Source: an uncultured Acidobacteriota bacterium (lineage in GTDB: Bacteria; Acidobacteriota; Thermoanaerobaculia; UBA5066; DATFVB01). Taken from it: a stretch of 64,000 bases of DNA. Both the position numbers and the translations under genes were made by a program. Position 1 is the stretch's first letter, and each line of letters starts with the position of its first letter. The notes under the pieces were generated by a model. It saw only the letters and a list, made by a program, of their open reading frames with translations. It did no database searches and had not been told where the DNA came from. The stretch lies in the NCBI GenBank assembly GCA_963813155.1, contig CAWEYG010000005.1, positions 75,524 through 139,523 on the forward strand. Reading direction: 5' to 3'. Of this stretch, positions 3,504 to 62,677 are shown one piece after another.

Positions 3504-4083
3504 GCTCGGCCTCGTCCTCGACGAGCCCCGGATCGCGCTTCTCCTGGCGTTCCTGACGGAGCTGTCCGTCTGGGGGGAGGCGACGAATCTGACCGGGAAG
3601 CTCTCCGACGAAGACCTGGCCTTCCACTGTCTCGAATCCGCCTGCGGCGCGGACCTGCTGGAGCCGGGGGAGACCGTCCTCGACATCGGGTCCGGAGCCG
3701 GTTTTCCGGGGATTCCTCTCGCCATCTGGCGGGTCCGAATTACCCTGCTCGAACCCCGCGAGCGACGCGCCGCTTTCCTTCGGCACGTGCTGCGCGCCCT
3801 GGGTGCGGGCTTGAACGCCGAGGTTCGAGCCGATAGAGTGGAGAGACTCCCGGATCCCGCATTCGACTCGGCGACGGTACGCGCGGTCGGCGGTTTCGGA
3901 GCCACGGTGGGGGAGGCGAAATTCTTGAAGCCGAACGGGAAACTGCTGATCTGGACAAGCGATGCCGCACGGTACGAGCGGGATCTCGCTCCCGGGTTCC
4001 GCCTCGAAAAATCGCGCCCGATTCCGACCTCCCGAACCCGGGAAATCGCGGTCTTCCGGAAATGTTCCACGGGGAACATTTGA
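3433..4083 (+). CDS. rsmG: 16S rRNA (guanine527-N7)-methyltransferase RsmG (GidB)
   Basis: SAM motif [16 protein letters not shown]. The only in-frame start is ATG 3433, giving a 71-nt overlap with mnmG. Confidence 0.8.
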
Positions 4084-4099
4084 GCCGCTGAGGGCGTTG

Positions 4100-18943: not shown

Positions 18944-19917
18944 TGAAAACCGCGCGTCTTCTCCTGTCGTGCCTGTCGATTTTCGCGTCGGCGGCCGTTC
19001 CGCTTTTTGGTGCGCCGGCCGCGCCGCAGAGCGGGTTGGCCCTCGTGCCTTCCGATTCGATCGCCGTTGCGGTCGTCAGCCTCGATCGGCTTCGATCGAG
19101 CGACCTCGCCCCTTCGCTCTTCCACGAGGCCGACGAGATCACCGTCGATGGAAAGGCCGCGGCGTTTCTGAAGGACGCCGGCCTCGATCCGAAACGCGAC
19201 GTCGACGTCGCGGTCTTCTCCCTTTGCGCCGGAGGCCGCGACGAGGCGCAGCCGCTCGTCGCGTTCGAGGGCAGGTTCGATCCGGCGTCGCTTTCCGCGG
19301 CGACCGCCTCGCGGGGCGGCACGCGGATCGACGGCGCAATTCCGTACTTTCGACTTCCCGCCTCCGCCGATTCCAAGGGACATCGGGGCGATCCGGGCGC
19401 CGTTGCGTTTCTCTCTTCGCGCGTCGTTCTCGCCGGAAGCGAGCCGGCGCTCCTGCACGCGCTCGATCTGTATTCGTCCGGCCGCTCCGGCCTCCCCTCG
19501 AAGGGCGCGCTCGGAGGGATGGTCGCGAAAGTCGATCCCGCGTCCTCGGCCTGGGTCGTCGTCGACGCCGCGCGGGCGCGCGAGTTGAAAGAAGCCTCCG
19601 CTTCGCACGAGTCGGCCGAGGGGCCGGCGGCGACGGTGTATTCCGCCCTGCGTTCCGTGTCCTGGGTCGTATTCCAGGCGAACCTTTCCTCCGGAGGAGT
19701 GGACGTGAAGGCGACGGGTCTCTCCTCCGACGAAGACGCCCGGCAGAACATCGAAGACGTGCTCAAGGGAATGATCGCGGCGTGGCGCATGGCGGTGCAA
19801 TCGAAGAGCCCCGAGCTCGTCTCCGCGCTCCGCAAGTTCACCGTGACGCGGGACAACCAGGGAGTCACGATCGCCGGGCGAATCCCGGCCGAGCTGTTCA
19901 AGACCGCGAAGCGGTAG
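18943..19917 (+). CDS. Secreted hypothetical protein coupled to the ABC-2 exporter (possibly DUF4340-like)
   Basis: Signal peptide MKTARLLLSCLSIFASAAVPLFGA; ATGA overlap with the permease. Confidence 0.6.
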   Translation: MKTARLLLSCLSIFASAAVPLFGAPAAPQSGLALVPSDSIAVAVVSLDRLRSSDLAPSLFHEADEITVDGKAAAFLKDAGLDPKRDVDVAVFSLCAGGRDEAQPLVAFEGRFDPASLSAATASRGGTRIDGAIPYFRLPASADSKGHRGDPGAVAFLSSRVVLAGSEPALLHALDLYSSGRSGLPSKGALGGMVAKVDPASSAWVVVDAARARELKEASASHESAEGPAATVYSALRSVSWVVFQANLSSGGVDVKATGLSSDEDARQNIEDVLKGMIAAWRMAVQSKSPELVSALRKFTVTRDNQGVTIAGRIPAELFKTAKR

Positions 19918-19948
19918 CCAGGGGCCGGGTCAACGCGCCGGCGCAATA

Positions 19949-20059
19949 AGGGCGGGTGGCGCGGGGCGAGACTCCCTTTTGCCGCTCGCGTCGCGGGTGT
20001 AGCAAAGTCCTCAGGCTCGCGGCGAGCGGAAAAGAGGAGCGAGTCCCGCGGCAGGACCC
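19949..20059 (+). repeat. Copy A of a ~110-nt structured intergenic repeat (3 copies in the window)
   Basis: GGGCGAGACTCCCTTTTGCCGCTCGCG...TAGCAAAGTCCTCAGGCTCGCGGCGAGCGGAAAAGAGGAGCGAGTCCCGCGGCAGGACCC; about 85-90% identical to 50230-50339 and to the reverse complement of 59953-60060. Confidence 0.8.
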
Positions 20060-20135
20060 GCTTGCCGGGCCGGCGTTGGGGTTGGACCGCTCTTCGGGCT
20101 GAGCGAGCTCGACGCCGGGCTAGAATCGCTCCGAG

Positions 20136-30944: not shown

Positions 30945-31574
30945 CTAGTTCTCGGCGACGGCCCAGAGGTGGAAGATGACGGTCAGAGGATCCTGGATCC
31001 GGTTGAAGACCGTCGACATGTTTCGAAGGCCGTACTGCTTCCAGTGGATCGGCACGGCGCCGGCAACCAGGATGTGGTCCTCGAGCACGGCGCACTGAAC
31101 CGACGCCTGGAGCGGTTTGCTCACTCCGTGGATGACGACGTCGGCGGAGAGCTCCACCGTTACGGTCGAGCCGGGGCCGAACCCCGACAGATTTCCCTTG
31201 TAGCTCTTTCCTTCGAACACGATCTCCGGGAACTGCGAAGCCTCCAGGACCTTGTCGCGCAGGACGGCGTTGCGGCGCGCATTCCCGGTCTCAAGCGAAT
31301 CCGCGCGAAAACCGATTCGGGAACGAAGAACTCCGGGGTTTCTCGGATCCACTTCCGCGCTTCCGCTCCACGATCCGATCGTTCCGTGGACGAGGTGAAA
31401 CGTGGTCGGAAGCTCGAAGGAGATTTTCGATTTCTCTGGCACGAAACGGTACTTCAGGACGCGGGGAGGCGGGGCGAGAGCGACAGGCGCGTCGGTCGAC
31501 GAGCCGCCGCCCGTCTGGGCGAACGCGGGAGCGCAGGCCAGAATCGCGAGCGGAATCCAGCGAAAGAACTTCAC
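30945..31574 (-). CDS. YceI-like (polyisoprenoid-binding) periplasmic protein
   Basis: Signal peptide VKFFRWIPLAILACAPAFAQ; YceI-like beta-barrel length (~210 aa); GTG start. Confidence 0.6.
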   Translation of the reverse strand: MKFFRWIPLAILACAPAFAQTGGGSSTDAPVALAPPPRVLKYRFVPEKSKISFELPTTFHLVHGTIGSWSGSAEVDPRNPGVLRSRIGFRADSLETGNARRNAVLRDKVLEASQFPEIVFEGKSYKGNLSGFGPGSTVTVELSADVVIHGVSKPLQASVQCAVLEDHILVAGAVPIHWKQYGLRNMSTVFNRIQDPLTVIFHLWAVAEN

Positions 31575-31584
31575 GCGCGTAATA

Positions 31585-33063
31585 CTAGCAGGCGCCGGGT
31601 TCCGGCACGATCGGGTACGGATGGTCCTCGAAGACTCGCGGCCGGATGCCGCGGAACGGATCGACGATCCGGCGAAGCCGCGGAAGCACCCTCCACCGCG
31701 GCCGGGGAAGTGGGAGGTACATGCACCAGCGCGTGAGCCGTTCGACGACCGGCTGTTGCGCTTCGAAAGAGTTGACGACGTTCCGGTGCTCACGGCCGAA
31801 CCGTGAAAGCTCCTCGAGGTACCACTCCCGCGGCAGCTCGGGGGAGAAATAGAAGAACGGCTCGAGCAGGTTCGCGTCCGGCGCAATCAGCCCTTCGGCC
31901 CGAAGGATGCGCTCCAGACCCGTCCGCGGATAGACCCGCACGCCGTTGGTGATGTAGACGAGGTCCGACGGCGGGATCCGACGATCGATGAAGTCGAACG
32001 TCTCGGCGACGGTGTCCGGGTTCTCCCCGGGCGAGCCGACGAGAAAGACCCACACGGCCGGAATTCCGTGGCGGGGCAGCCACCGCGCGATCTTCTCGAC
32101 ATCGGCCCGGCCGAAACCCTTCTGCATTCGCTTCAGGACCGAATCCGACGCCGACTCCACGGTGCACGTCGTCGCGACGAAGCCGCCCTTTTTCATCAGC
32201 GCGACGAGCTCCTCGGTGACGCCGACCGGATTGAAACCCGCCGCGGTGAGGCGGACCTTGAGGCCGCGAGCGAGAATTCCGTTCAGGATTCCGCGCGCCT
32301 GCACCGGAGGATGGGAGAAGACCGCGTCCACGAACTCGAAGAATTCGGCGCCGAGGGAATTCGCGCGCGCGATTTCCTCCACCACCTCCGGGACGGGACG
32401 GAACCGGTAGCGAACTCCCTCGAGCGTCCCGTACGTGCAATACGTGCAGGTGAACCCGCAACCCCTCTTCGTCTGGATGGGAAACACTCCTTCGCGCCGC
32501 ATGTACGTCTTCATGTCGAGATGACGGAAGAGGTCGGGGTCGGGAAGGCCGTCGATCGGCTCGGAGGAATGGAGGGCGTTGTGGAGGAGCCGGCCGCTGC
32601 GGCGGACGACGAGCCCCGGAATGTCGTCGAACGGGATCCCGGCCGCCCAGCGTCGGAGCAGATCGGGAAAGCGCTTCTCGGCGTCGCCGTAGAGAATCGC
32701 GTCCGGCGAGACTTCTTCGAAGACTCGAACCGGCTCAATGGCCGCGCCCGCGCCCCCGAGGATGAGGGGAGCGGCGGTGATTCGCCGAAGGCGCGAGAAG
32801 AGCTCGCAAATCTCGGGAACGAAGTACTTCGTTCCGATCAGGTCGGAGTTGTCGACGTTCCGCATCGATACCCCGACGAAATCGGGGCGAAAATCGTCGA
32901 TCACCCGCTTCAGTGGAAGCGAGGAGTCCTCCTCCCACATCAGGTCGACGACGCGCGCTTCGATCCCGTCTCTCTCGAGCTGCGCGGCCACCAGGCAAGG
33001 ACCGACCGGCACCACGGGGTAGGGCGTCCGTTCCCGGTTCGTCGAAACGAGGAGGACCTTCAC
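31585..33063 (-). CDS. B12-binding domain-containing radical SAM protein (candidate methyltransferase)
   Basis: N-terminal B12-binding Rossmann-like region MKVLLVSTNRERTPYPVVPVGPCLVAA..., radical SAM cysteine triad RGCGFTCTYCTY; 492 aa. Confidence 0.8.
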   Translation of the reverse strand: MKVLLVSTNRERTPYPVVPVGPCLVAAQLERDGIEARVVDLMWEEDSSLPLKRVIDDFRPDFVGVSMRNVDNSDLIGTKYFVPEICELFSRLRRITAAPLILGGAGAAIEPVRVFEEVSPDAILYGDAEKRFPDLLRRWAAGIPFDDIPGLVVRRSGRLLHNALHSSEPIDGLPDPDLFRHLDMKTYMRREGVFPIQTKRGCGFTCTYCTYGTLEGVRYRFRPVPEVVEEIARANSLGAEFFEFVDAVFSHPPVQARGILNGILARGLKVRLTAAGFNPVGVTEELVALMKKGGFVATTCTVESASDSVLKRMQKGFGRADVEKIARWLPRHGIPAVWVFLVGSPGENPDTVAETFDFIDRRIPPSDLVYITNGVRVYPRTGLERILRAEGLIAPDANLLEPFFYFSPELPREWYLEELSRFGREHRNVVNSFEAQQPVVERLTRWCMYLPLPRPRWRVLPRLRRIVDPFRGIRPRVFEDHPYPIVPEPGAC

Positions 33064-50159: not shown

Positions 50160-50182
50160 AATAATTTAGTGTAAACTAAACC
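50160..50182. promoter_or_regulatory. Candidate ArsR operator: AT-rich inverted repeat TTTAGT-GTAA-ACTAAA immediately upstream of the arsR start
   Basis: AATTTAGTGTAAACTAAACC sits in a 70-nt AT-rich island (50157-50228) in a ~70% GC genome, directly 5' of arsR (minus strand). Confidence 0.45.
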
Positions 50183-50229
50183 AACGGTCAATAGAAATGT
50201 AAATGACTGAAATATAGCTGTTTATGGTT

Positions 50230-50339
50230 GGGCGGGTGGTGTGGGGCGAGACTCCCTTTTGCCGCTCGCGACGCGGGCATAGCAAAGTCATCAGGCTCGC
50301 GGCGAGCGGAAAAGAGGAGCGAGTTCCGCGACAGGACCC
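50230..50339 (+). repeat. Copy B of the ~110-nt structured intergenic repeat
   Basis: GGGCGGGTGGTGTGGGGCGAGACTCCCTTTTGCCGCTCGCGACGCGGGCATAGCAAAGTCATCAGGCTCGCGGCGAGCGGAAAAGAGGAGCGAGTTCCGCGACAGGACCC. Confidence 0.8.
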
Positions 50340-50348
50340 GCCCAGCCG

Positions 50349-59922: not shown

Positions 59923-59952
59923 AAGGCGAATAGAAATTCGCTCGGCCGACGA

Positions 59953-60060
59953 GGGTCCTGTCATGGGAGTCGCCCCGCTTTTCCGCTCGCTGCGAATGTG
60001 AGGACTTTGCTACGACTCCGCGCCGCGAGCGGCAAAAGGGGGTCTCCTCCCATGCCACCC
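59953..60060 (-). repeat. Copy C (inverted) of the ~110-nt structured intergenic repeat, between divergent mtnA and pgk
   Basis: The reverse complement reads GGGTGGCATGGGAGGAGACCCCCTTTTGCCGCTCGCGGCGCGGAGTCGTAGCAAAGTCCTCACATTCGCAGCGAGCGGAAAAGCGGGGCGACTCCCATGACAGGACCC. Confidence 0.8.
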
Positions 60061-60260
60061 TTCCGGCCTTCGCTCAGGTGGGGGCTCCGCCTCTGAGCAA
60101 AGATCCGCGAGGGTCCGGGTCAACGCGCCGGCGCAGGCTGGTCTCTGAGATCCCGAGGGAAAGCGAACTGCGGCCGAGGGTCGAAGAGACTTGCCGAGAC
60201 CGGCGCTGGGGCTTGACCGCGAGCGGATCGAGCGAAGCTCCCTGCGCTAAGATTCGCCCG

Positions 60261-61433
60261 ATGAAGACCCTCGACGACGTCGACCTCCGCGGGAAGACCG
60301 TTTTCCTCCGCGTCGACTTCAACGTGCCGCTGAAAGACGGGCGCGTCGCCGACGACATGCGGATCGTCGAGACCGTGCCGACGATTCGCCGGGCGATCGA
60401 GGCCGGCGCGAAACTCGTGCTCGCGAGCCACCTCGGAAAGCCGAAGGGGAAGAGGGACGAAAAGCTCACGCTCCGACCCGTTTCGCTCCGCCTGGCGGAG
60501 CTCCTGAAGCAGCCCGTCTTTTTCGCGACGGATTGCGTTGGCGAAGAGGTCCGCGCCCAGGTCGCGAAGCTCGCGCCCGGCGACGTGCTCCTGCTCGAGA
60601 ACCTCCGTTTCCACGCCGGCGAGGAGAAGAACGATCCGGAGTTCGCCGCCGCGCTCGCGGAAGGAATCGAAATCTACGTCGACGACGCCTTCGGCGCGGC
60701 GCATCGGGCCCACGCGTCGATCGTCGGCGTTCCGAAGCGCGTCGCCGTCCGCGCCGCGGGGCTCCTCATGGCTTCCGAGGTCCAACACCTTTCGGCGCTG
60801 CTCGAGCCCGAGCGGCCGTTCGCCGCAATTCTCGGCGGCGCGAAGATCTCGACGAAAATGGAGCCCCTGCACGCGCTCGCCGGCCTGGCGGACATGCTGC
60901 TCCTGGGCGGCGGAATGGCGAATCATTTCGTTCGGGCCATCGGACTGCCGGTCGGAAAGTCGCTGCTCGAGGAAGACCGCGTTCCGGTCGCGCGGGAAAT
61001 CCTCGACCTGTGCAAGGAAGAGGGAAAGACGATCGCCCTTCCCTCCGATTTCGTCGTGGCGAAAGACCCCGCGGACGGAAAGAACGCGAAGACCGTGTCC
61101 ATCCAGGGAATTCCCCCGGACAAGATGGCGCTCGACATCGGCCCGAAGACCGTCGAGCAGTTCACCCGCCTCCTCGGCGACGCTCGGACGATCTTCTGGA
61201 ACGGTCCGATGGGGGTTTTCGAAAGCCCTCCGTTCGACAAGGGGACAATGGCGGTCGCCCGCCTGCTGGCGGAGTCGGGCGCGGTGACGGTCGTGGGCGG
61301 CGGCGAATCCGTGCAGGCCGTCCGCCGGGCCGGAGTGGCCGGGAAGATCACCCACGTTTCGACGGGCGGCGGGGCTTCGCTCGAGTTCCTGTCGGGCGTC
61401 GAGCTTCCGGGGCTGACAGCGCTGGAAGAGTAA
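60261..61433 (+). CDS. pgk: Phosphoglycerate kinase
   Basis: MKTLDDVDLRGKTVFLRVDFNVP...; 390 aa. Confidence 0.95.
   Translation: MKTLDDVDLRGKTVFLRVDFNVPLKDGRVADDMRIVETVPTIRRAIEAGAKLVLASHLGKPKGKRDEKLTLRPVSLRLAELLKQPVFFATDCVGEEVRAQVAKLAPGDVLLLENLRFHAGEEKNDPEFAAALAEGIEIYVDDAFGAAHRAHASIVGVPKRVAVRAAGLLMASEVQHLSALLEPERPFAAILGGAKISTKMEPLHALAGLADMLLLGGGMANHFVRAIGLPVGKSLLEEDRVPVAREILDLCKEEGKTIALPSDFVVAKDPADGKNAKTVSIQGIPPDKMALDIGPKTVEQFTRLLGDARTIFWNGPMGVFESPPFDKGTMAVARLLAESGAVTVVGGGESVQAVRRAGVAGKITHVSTGGGASLEFLSGVELPGLTALEE

Positions 61434-62592: not shown

Positions 62593-62677
<85 letters not shown>

Follow-up and report, generated by a model that had tools for sequence, protein, structure and literature searches.

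A family of intergenic hairpin repeats in Thermoanaerobaculia with rewritten stems, fixed unpaired motifs and rapid turnover of sites

A 64-kb stretch of contig CAWEYG010000005.1 (hereafter the window), from an uncultured member of the Thermoanaerobaculia, a group of abundant, almost uncultured soil and sediment Acidobacteria, carries three copies of a ~113-nt hairpin element that belongs to a multi-copy, lineage-restricted and strictly intergenic repeat family. Selection maintains the hairpin with its unpaired motifs fixed, the stems being able to vary provided that they still pair, and at orthologous spacers copies come and go, give way to others or decay. With confidence slightly better than even, we interpret the element as a new family of non-autonomous, structure-recognised, hairpin-forming mobile repeats with REPIN/BIME-like behaviour in a clade of Thermoanaerobaculia.

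Three copies of one hairpin in the window

Searched with filters off, the covariance model of the element (R1) found exactly three copies of it in the window (Table 1), with the antisense strands of these copies scoring 24–30 bits and the rest of the window at most 18 bits. An independent repeat finder recovered the same three, and neither a mismatch search nor the model with filters off found divergent extra copies in the window. The 20-mer TTTTGCCGCTCGCGNCGCGG has three exact occurrences there, compared with 0.2 expected by chance (≤3 mismatches). An earlier note on this DNA had described a three-copy, structured intergenic repeat of about 110 nt with 85–90% identity between copies. The copies, their long hairpins, their number and their length stand, and the range of identity is slightly wider, at 77–92% (copies 1 and 2, 92%; copies 1 and 3, 79%; copies 2 and 3, 77%). 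The invariant core TAGCAAAGTC(C/A)TCA and the terminal CAGGACCC to which it drew attention are both present in the window copies.

Folded as RNA, each copy forms one long imperfect hairpin with a minimum free energy (MFE) of -60 to -71 kcal/mol, and DNA parameters yield the same fold. Copy 1 reaches -70.9 kcal/mol (z -4.55 against dinucleotide shuffles; antisense -56.9), copy 2 -64.7 kcal/mol (z -5.69; antisense -54.0) and copy 3 -60.5 kcal/mol (z -5.15; antisense -59.5). The single-strand fold consists of five stacked helices, P1–P5 (Table 1), in an element that begins with GGGCGGGTGG... and ends with ...GGACCCGCC. GTCCT in the loop and AGGAC in the bulge make up a conserved inverted pair of short motifs. 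We set aside a loop–bulge pseudoknot (GUCCU with AGGAC) as unsupported: variants in one motif are unmatched in the other, and the two lie ~35 bp apart on a rigid stem. In one sub-variant, a 21-nt extra small hairpin, CCGACGCCGGTGAGGCGTCCGGAATGTTG, replaces GGAAAAG on the 3' arm (L042 255–285; L019 about 1745–1775), and at L025 5779–5881 the same insert replaces the apex of the element.

Table 1. Copies of the element, associated modules and parts of the hairpin. Positions are those of the window.
Feature	Position	Strand	Description
Copy 1	19949–20062	+	core element, subfamily A; R1 129.5 bits
Copy 2	50229–50342	+	core element, subfamily A, short form; R1 126.8 bits
Copy 3	59950–60065	-	core element, subfamily B; R1 120.3 bits
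Module U, 5' of copy 1	19917–19945	+	29 nt, GCCAGGGGCCGGGTCAACGCGCCGGCGCA; pairs with 3' flank
Long-form 3' flank of copy 1	20063–20107	+	TTGCCGGGCCGGCGTTGGGGTTGGACC...; partner arm of U
Module U beside copy 3	60107–60135	+	5' side of copy 3, inverted relative to copy 3 sense
Module X	60136–60237	+	GGCTGGTCTCTGAGATCCCGAGGGAAAGCGAACTGCGGCCGAGGGTCGAAGAG...; adjoins U in the mtnA–pgk spacer
P1, hairpin base			GGGCGGGU / ACCCGCCC
Asymmetric internal loop above P1			5' GG, 3' GACAGGA
P2			followed by a small internal loop
P3			CUCCCUUUU / AAAAGNGGAG; followed by a bulged G
P4			CCGCUCGC / GCGAGCGG; followed by a 2-nt bulge
P5			followed by an apical loop of ~20 nt containing GUAGCAAAGUCCUCA

Stems covary around fixed loop and bulge motifs

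The compensatory stem changes suspected in the earlier note are borne out by swaps between copies 1 and 2 on the one hand and copy 3 on the other: CGCGGG/CCCGCG is replaced by CATGGG/CCCATG, and ACTCCC/GGAG by ACCCCC/GGGG. Covariation, which it had proposed as a check, is strong across the family. As reference we mapped the single-sequence MFE structure onto the alignment because the RNAalifold consensus was off-register in the middle helices. Among 56 copies, 94.3% of cells were paired and 15 pairs had changed on both sides, compared with 6.4±1.3 in shuffles; among 95 copies, the figures were 93.9% of cells and double changes in 22 of 41 pairs, compared with 10.2±1.9. Sliding the structure by 1–3 columns reduced pairing in the 95-copy set to 41–49%.

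Subfamilies C and D, from the metagenome set, differ from A and B at nearly every stem position (for example, P3 CUCCUGGGA / UCCCAUGGAG and P4 GCCGCGCGC / GCGCGCGGU) and fold into the same helices and bulges. Three elements are common to the subfamilies: GGGUGG on the 5' side, GUAGCAAAGUCCUCA in the apical loop and the GACAGGA bulge on the 3' side. GGGTGG and GACAGGACCC are invariant or nearly so in the 56 copies even though the first collection scan did not demand them. The outermost pairs are the most variable part of the element, and the apical loop and internal bulge the most conserved. With stems rewritten and loop and bulge fixed, the family bears an unusually clear form of the signature expected where a hairpin is recognised by its shape and a small number of unpaired bases.

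Functional RNAs, too, typically covary strongly around conserved unpaired motifs, and we weighed a role at the RNA level, which we judge unlikely. The element would then be a multi-copy structured noncoding RNA or a cis-acting RNA module (for example, one that stabilises 3' ends, is cut by an RNase or otherwise processed, resembles a terminator or acts as a protein sponge). Its apical loop and AGGAC bulge would serve for binding, and the family, having spread by duplication or mobility, would since have been maintained by selection. The sense strand does fold better than the antisense for copies 1 and 2, but the two strands of copy 3 fold equally well. Three transitions in copy 2 leave G–U pairs on the sense strand only, and copies in different species are nearly identical, as this account would have it; however, the copies share no conserved upstream sequence, promoter or U-tract/terminator, and the flanks of short-form copies are unrelated. 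The small-RNA candidate of the earlier note is weakened by this lack of a conserved promoter or terminator and by the random orientation of copies described below.

The family is restricted to related genomes

Our first scan, for an exact pattern in one genome per species, returned 61 loci, all but one of them (L011) from two metagenome-assembled genomes (MAGs), JBOGJO01 (Thermoanaerobaculia bacterium) and CAVZCI01 ('uncultured Acidobacteriota'). L011, labelled 'Alphaproteobacteria', is a chance match to the pattern without the rest of the element. By nhmmer and covariance model together, we found ~64 sense copies in 388 kb around the matches in the two MAGs, many more than the three from which the earlier note had started. 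The window represents a third species, with syntenic genes at 75–83% DNA identity to JBOGJO and a PGK at 94% protein identity to CAVZCI, and subfamilies A and B are present in all three genomes. A second scan, of metagenomes, with a pattern that fixed only GGGTGG, TAGCAAAGTC and GACAGGACCC, added 43 soil and rhizosphere contigs. In density, the window holds 3 copies in 64 kb, compared with ~23 pattern matches on the match-bearing CAVZCI contigs (~2.8 Mb).

In the short-read MAG, a large number of contigs break off within a copy, as is expected of a multi-copy repeat. Because the family breaks short-read assemblies, inflates spacers and can mislead start-codon calls, R1 is of immediate practical use for annotating and assembling Thermoanaerobaculia genomes.

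The family matches none of the libraries that we searched, although its general kind (REP/REPIN/MITE-like) is familiar. At gathering score, Rfam release 15 gave no match on the element in the whole window; in E-value mode the best match for copy 1 was mir-942 (17 bits, below its threshold of 100), and in L061 no match at E-value ≤1 overlapped the core or the neighbouring repeat family rep2 (see below). No Rfam family and no insertion sequence (IS) end matches the element, a match of either kind being what the earlier note had named as refuting it, and the lack of an Rfam match also counts against an RNA-level role. Collections of plasmids, phages and viral contigs contained no match, and on that ground we set aside an origin from any of them. 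Likewise, blastn (word size 11) against 20,395 E. coli records from 5,426 genomes returned no match, and we dropped a relationship to the REP and ERIC repeats of E. coli. The searchable literature describes no repeat family for Thermoanaerobaculia.

Copies turn over at orthologous spacers

Pfam matches and inspection of open reading frames (ORFs) agree with the gene context given in the earlier note (hydrolase; tdh/arsR; mtnA/pgk). An Abhydrolase_2 gene lies downstream of copy 1. Copy 2 is flanked by an ArsR-type helix-turn-helix (HTH) gene and a zinc alcohol/threonine-dehydrogenase-like (tdh-like) gene, lies 7 nt past the tdh-like stop and is antisense to both neighbours; in L042 a core likewise adjoins the orthologue of the gene beside copy 2. 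PGK and an IF-2B/mtnA-like gene flank copy 3, whose 3' end is 28 nt upstream of the mtnA-like start codon. Long ORFs traverse copy 3, and window positions 59940–60073, which include it, are 96% identical to L053 of another species.

Judged by gene calls from a crude caller based on GC content at third codon positions, every copy is intergenic. Relative to neighbouring genes, 14 copies are oriented same/same, 14 opposite/opposite, 11 lie in convergent and 5 in divergent spacers, without bias. The mild excess at gene 3' ends and in convergent spacers (11/44) would suit a role at the RNA level, but the random orientation speaks against one, since half of the copies would be transcribed as an antisense hairpin with a different loop.

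Comparison of orthologous spacers revealed both filled and empty sites. Positions 31496–31602 of the window are empty where L059 is filled, and L039 lacks the mosaic of ~510 nt, one copy included, that is found at the corresponding site of L029. The copies of L012 and L023 point in opposite directions and differ in their distance from the upstream gene; those of L028 and L058 likewise point in opposite directions. At about 4070–4095, L023 further contains a remnant, GCGGGTCCTG|CCCGGCGCCACC, in which an antisense copy is reduced to its two ends, the interior having been deleted. The orthologous spacer of L012 holds a complete antisense copy at this position. The remnant suggests hairpin-mediated internal deletion as a route of decay. 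Between mtnA and pgk, the minus strand of the window holds a B-type copy at a distance of 28 nt from mtnA. No core is present in this spacer in L105 (the CAVZCI genome) or in contig L106, and in L107 the spacer contains a plus-strand copy of A type that lies 74 nt from pgk. The spacer upstream of the hydrolase gene carries a copy in the window and in JBOGJO, a different hairpin repeat in the closest relatives (L108 and L109; 96% and 88% protein identity) and yet another long hairpin in a third relative (L110).

Copies in different species differ at as few as 2 of 114 nt, with flanking genes 75–86% identical, and the nearest-neighbour pattern is star-like around a few consensus-like copies. Taken with the conserved consensus, the turnover of sites looks like that of a population produced from constrained master sequences, not of fixed functional loci. 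That presence, position, orientation and subfamily all vary at orthologous spacers is a further argument against an RNA-level role.

The other hairpin repeat family at these sites consists of CCTCTCCCGCGGGAGAGG plus GGGTGAGGGA…TCCCTCACCC and was seen at L105 2345–2430, L106 about 40–130, L108 1440–1560 and L109 about 290–440, filling, in related genomes, spacers that hold the core in the window; the window itself contains no copy of it. The long hairpin of L110 (about 1850–1960), found also in L111, is CCACTGTCATCCTGAGCGTAGCGAAGGATCTGTCTCGGAAAAGATCCTTCGTCGCATTCGGTTCCTCAGGATGACAGTGG, upstream of the orthologous hydrolase gene, and its GTAGCGAAGGATC recalls GTAGCAAAGTCCTC of the core loop.

Flanking sequences and neighbouring modules

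Across 89 copies, we found no direct target-site duplication (lengths 2–9 nt, offsets 0–15), the few matches being shared long-form flanks. This bears on a reading as a classical MITE, in which the element would be an internally deleted derivative of a DDE-type IS, its arms serving as terminal inverted repeats (TIRs) bound by a transposase in double-stranded DNA. Such a derivation is improbable in our view. The ~113-nt size, palindromic arms, intergenic placement, many copies and insertion polymorphism are all as a MITE would have them, and co-evolution of the element with different transposases could in principle explain why both arms change together between subfamilies, but duplications are missing at any offset, conservation peaks in the apical loop and internal bulge and not at the termini, and G–U pairs are tolerated. 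Moreover, 548 kb searched with nhmmer and the covariance model contained neither a split copy nor a larger element sharing these ends, and no transposase lies nearby.

The sequences just outside the core are mutually complementary in a locus-specific manner. The run of consecutive pairs between flanks averaged 3.8, compared with 2.6±0.1 in permuted flank pairs, and flank duplex energy was -12.9 kcal/mol, compared with -10.7±0.3 in permuted pairs. Within these extensions G–U (28) and A–C (21) combinations are about equal; the extensions therefore look strand-symmetric, which points to a property at the DNA level, and this absence of strand preference is another point against an RNA-level role. 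The complementarity may stem from a preference for palindromic targets, from inverted duplication at insertion or from later fold-back 'palindrome growth'. Insertion into a pre-existing hairpin was rejected as its source at the empty site 31496–31602, which has no hairpin.

Several copies are accompanied by further modules. In the long form of copy 1, module U and the 3' flank extend the hairpin to ~190 nt (fold of 19905–20112, -117 kcal/mol), and window positions 19920–20107 align with L039 (191 nt, 87% identity) and with L044 (158 nt, 92%). Module U, with consensus GC[CG]AGGG[GT]CCGGGTCAACGCGCCGGCGCA, occurs twice in the window, and good matches to it in all fetched loci lie only ≤56 nt from a core, in either orientation. 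In the mtnA–pgk spacer, the window and L107 agree in the position of U and differ in the side of it on which the core lies. Window positions 59953–60237 align beyond the core with L054, L058, L007 and L012; module X, with the motif …GAGATCCCGAGGGAAAGCGAACTGCGGCCGAGGGTCGA…, is also next to a core at L012 2780–2884, L058 6434–6520 and L054 1–110. X occupies most of the spacer upstream of pgk, and a spurious long ORF (60078–61433) reads through it.

A second repeat family, rep2 (~480 nt), was seen in the JBOGJO MAG, where it often abuts cores (L061 4691–5210 and 880–1354; L007 5721–6176). Parts of it occur in L004, L006, L015, L025, L027, L033, L036, L042, L051, L052 and L060, and in the last of these the core sits between rep2 positions of about 301 and 421. 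Rfam gave no match to rep2, in which one weak terminator-like site was seen.

Copies are often embedded in mosaics with U, X and rep2 in varying order and orientation. BIMEs form mosaics with other palindromic modules too, and host proteins acting on a cruciform or duplex have been proposed for some REP/BIME elements. By analogy, the copies could be sites for a nucleoid-associated protein, a topoisomerase/gyrase or a recombinase, in cruciform or duplex form, for chromosome organisation. We regard this as very improbable. Orientation-independent intergenic placement, strand-symmetric flank extensions and the inverted GTCCT/AGGAC pair would be in keeping with it, yet positions are not conserved at orthologous spacers and density varies widely between genomes; the covarying stems, for their part, imply selection on intrastrand pairing and not on a duplex motif. 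No candidate protein was identified.

A proposed mobile element and the search for its partner

The earlier note had listed a REP/MITE-like mobile element, small RNAs and protein-binding sites as candidates. Mobility of a REP/MITE-like kind is the best supported of the three because of the filled and empty sites, the changes of orientation and subfamily, the remnant and the star-like similarity; its TIR-MITE form is weakened by the missing target duplications. In the process that we propose, new copies would be produced from conserved master copies by an enzyme acting in trans, which would recognise the folded shape plus the bases of loop and bulge. Recognition would most plausibly take place on single-stranded DNA, in the way that HUH/Y1 transposases (RAYT, TIRYT, IS200/IS605 TnpA) read their hairpins. 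Insertion would occur without direct target duplication, the hairpin base would later tend to lengthen by locus-specific complementary flanks, and copies would cluster with U, X and rep2 into mosaics. Effects on the host, for example through hairpins in read-through transcripts, would be a by-product.

Several observations weigh against mobility of this kind. All-against-all clustering of 329 neighbouring ORFs gave no recurring protein family beside copies, only orthologues and ordinary paralogues. A tblastn search of the 548 kb with IS200 TnpA and E. coli RAYT queries found no match, a weak test because the 548 kb covers little of each genome and RAYT genes as a rule occur only once. At the paired-copy loci inspected (L004, L052, L025, L047, L032, L062 and L087), the ORFs between copies were housekeeping genes, a small membrane protein or toxin–antitoxin pairs. 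The canonical REP tag GTAG is not at the 5' foot of the hairpin, the sole conserved GTAG being in the apical loop. Strong lagging-strand targeting might give an orientation bias; by local GC skew, the sense strand is G-rich at 25 loci and C-rich at 24, a poor proxy for replication direction because local skew does not correlate with coding strand here, and copy orientation shows no bias relative to the coding strand (28 vs 21). The core itself has more G–U than A–C combinations (136 vs 67), a weak strand asymmetry driven by a few columns; strand-specific selection was not upheld, given this weak asymmetry in the core and the symmetry of the flank extensions. Lastly, the invariance of the loop is partly by construction, since both collection scans demanded exact TAGCAAAGTC. 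Among the few copies found independently of the pattern, which include L032:7610, the loop is in most cases intact or changed at a single base: it reads TCGCAAAGTC in L087:568 and TAGCAAAGGC in L087:1 and L062:2459, and in L025:5779 the apex is replaced.

One metagenome contig (L087 1–1825) has three cores, of B, B and A types, within 1.8 kb. Two of them bracket a pair of genes for a RelE-like toxin and an HTH antitoxin, with a second small two-gene pair just downstream.

Beyond a mobile hairpin repeat as such, we put forward two more specific possibilities, together doubtful. The element would be either the substrate of an undescribed structure-specific mobilisation system, in which an enzyme class reads the apical loop GUAGCAAAGUCCUCA and the asymmetric AGGAC bulge of the 113-nt hairpin and gives locus-specific inverted flank extensions in place of direct target duplications, or a functional structured RNA of Acidobacteria, mobile and present in many copies, with a shared partner that binds to its loop and bulge. 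Rapid turnover of sites together with a near-identical consensus across species makes the family a good system for finding the enzyme, and it is suited to the study of long-term persistence of intragenomic replicators outside the Proteobacteria.

Comparison with known repeat systems

REPINs are REP doublets that form hairpins and are mobilised by RAYTs (PMC3116915; PMC3337134). In Acidobacteria, TIRYT genes have flanking repeat families, and a class-3 Y1 transposase of Planctomycetes and Acidobacteria is flanked by atypical secondary structures (PMC3733652; PMC6006769). Like REPINs, our element is a hairpin of ~100 nt, present in tens to hundreds of intergenic copies, non-autonomous and without target duplication, and its population is centred on a conserved master sequence, persists in the lineage and forms clusters and mosaics. 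It differs in being one long asymmetric hairpin instead of two short REP units (each a 20–40-nt palindrome). Its loop and internal bulge are the most conserved parts, whereas the spacer or loop is the variable part of a REPIN, and its GTAG is in the loop, whereas the foot of a REP hairpin carries GTAG (or CGTC). In REP–RAYT systems the repeats flank a RAYT (Y1/HUH) gene, usually single-copy, in an arrangement called a REPtron; no RAYT or TIRYT gene was found in the 548 kb or linked to the element there. We did not file the family as REPINs because it has neither two short REP units nor the GTAG foot, although in behaviour, so far as it can be seen, REPINs and BIMEs are its nearest counterparts. 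With BIMEs it shares a palindromic unit that combines with other short modules within intergenic spacers, although its sequence is unrelated by the E. coli search and its unit is three times longer than a REP.

ERIC/IRU elements are 127-bp imperfect palindromes of Enterobacteriaceae and Vibrio. They resemble our element in length, in having a single long imperfect palindrome, in intergenic placement in both orientations, in variants with internal insertions (here L042 and L019) and in sites where they are present or absent. Sequence and host phylum are unrelated, and ERIC elements themselves have no established mobility or partner enzyme, so the likeness is one of form only. Hairpin-forming MITEs such as Correia/NEMIS (Neisseria), RUP and BOX (Streptococcus) and Nezha (cyanobacteria) are likewise small, non-autonomous, palindromic, abundant and intergenic, and can fold in transcripts. 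These elements have TIRs that match known IS families and make target duplications (for example, TA for Correia); our element has no such duplication, and its conservation peaks in the loop, not at the ends.

The attC sites of integrons (for example, the VCRs of Vibrio) are imperfect palindromes of 60–140 nt whose folded single strand is read through extrahelical bases and not through the stem sequence, and which are highly similar within a genome. Unlike them, our element has no R''/R' boxes (RYYYAAC / GTTRRRY) at its ends, and its copies in the window, of which one is inverted, are separated by 10–30 kb and dispersed among housekeeping genes, not arrayed behind cassettes.

Other features of the window

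Between the start of the ArsR-type gene and copy 2 is a 70-nt AT-rich stretch (50160–50228; the genome has 65% GC) that contains the near-palindrome TTTAGTGTAAACTAAA, probably the operator and promoter of this gene. Two short motifs, GGGCTAGAATC (20117–20127), 8 nt before the hydrolase ATG, and CTGCGCTAAGAT (about 60242–60253), 7 nt before the pgk ATG, are kept in four to six related genomes in which the remaining spacer is unalignable. They look like -10-type promoter elements, in which case the leaders would be very short or absent. A tRNA gene with a long variable arm at 62593–62674 is the sole Rfam match at gathering score in the window.

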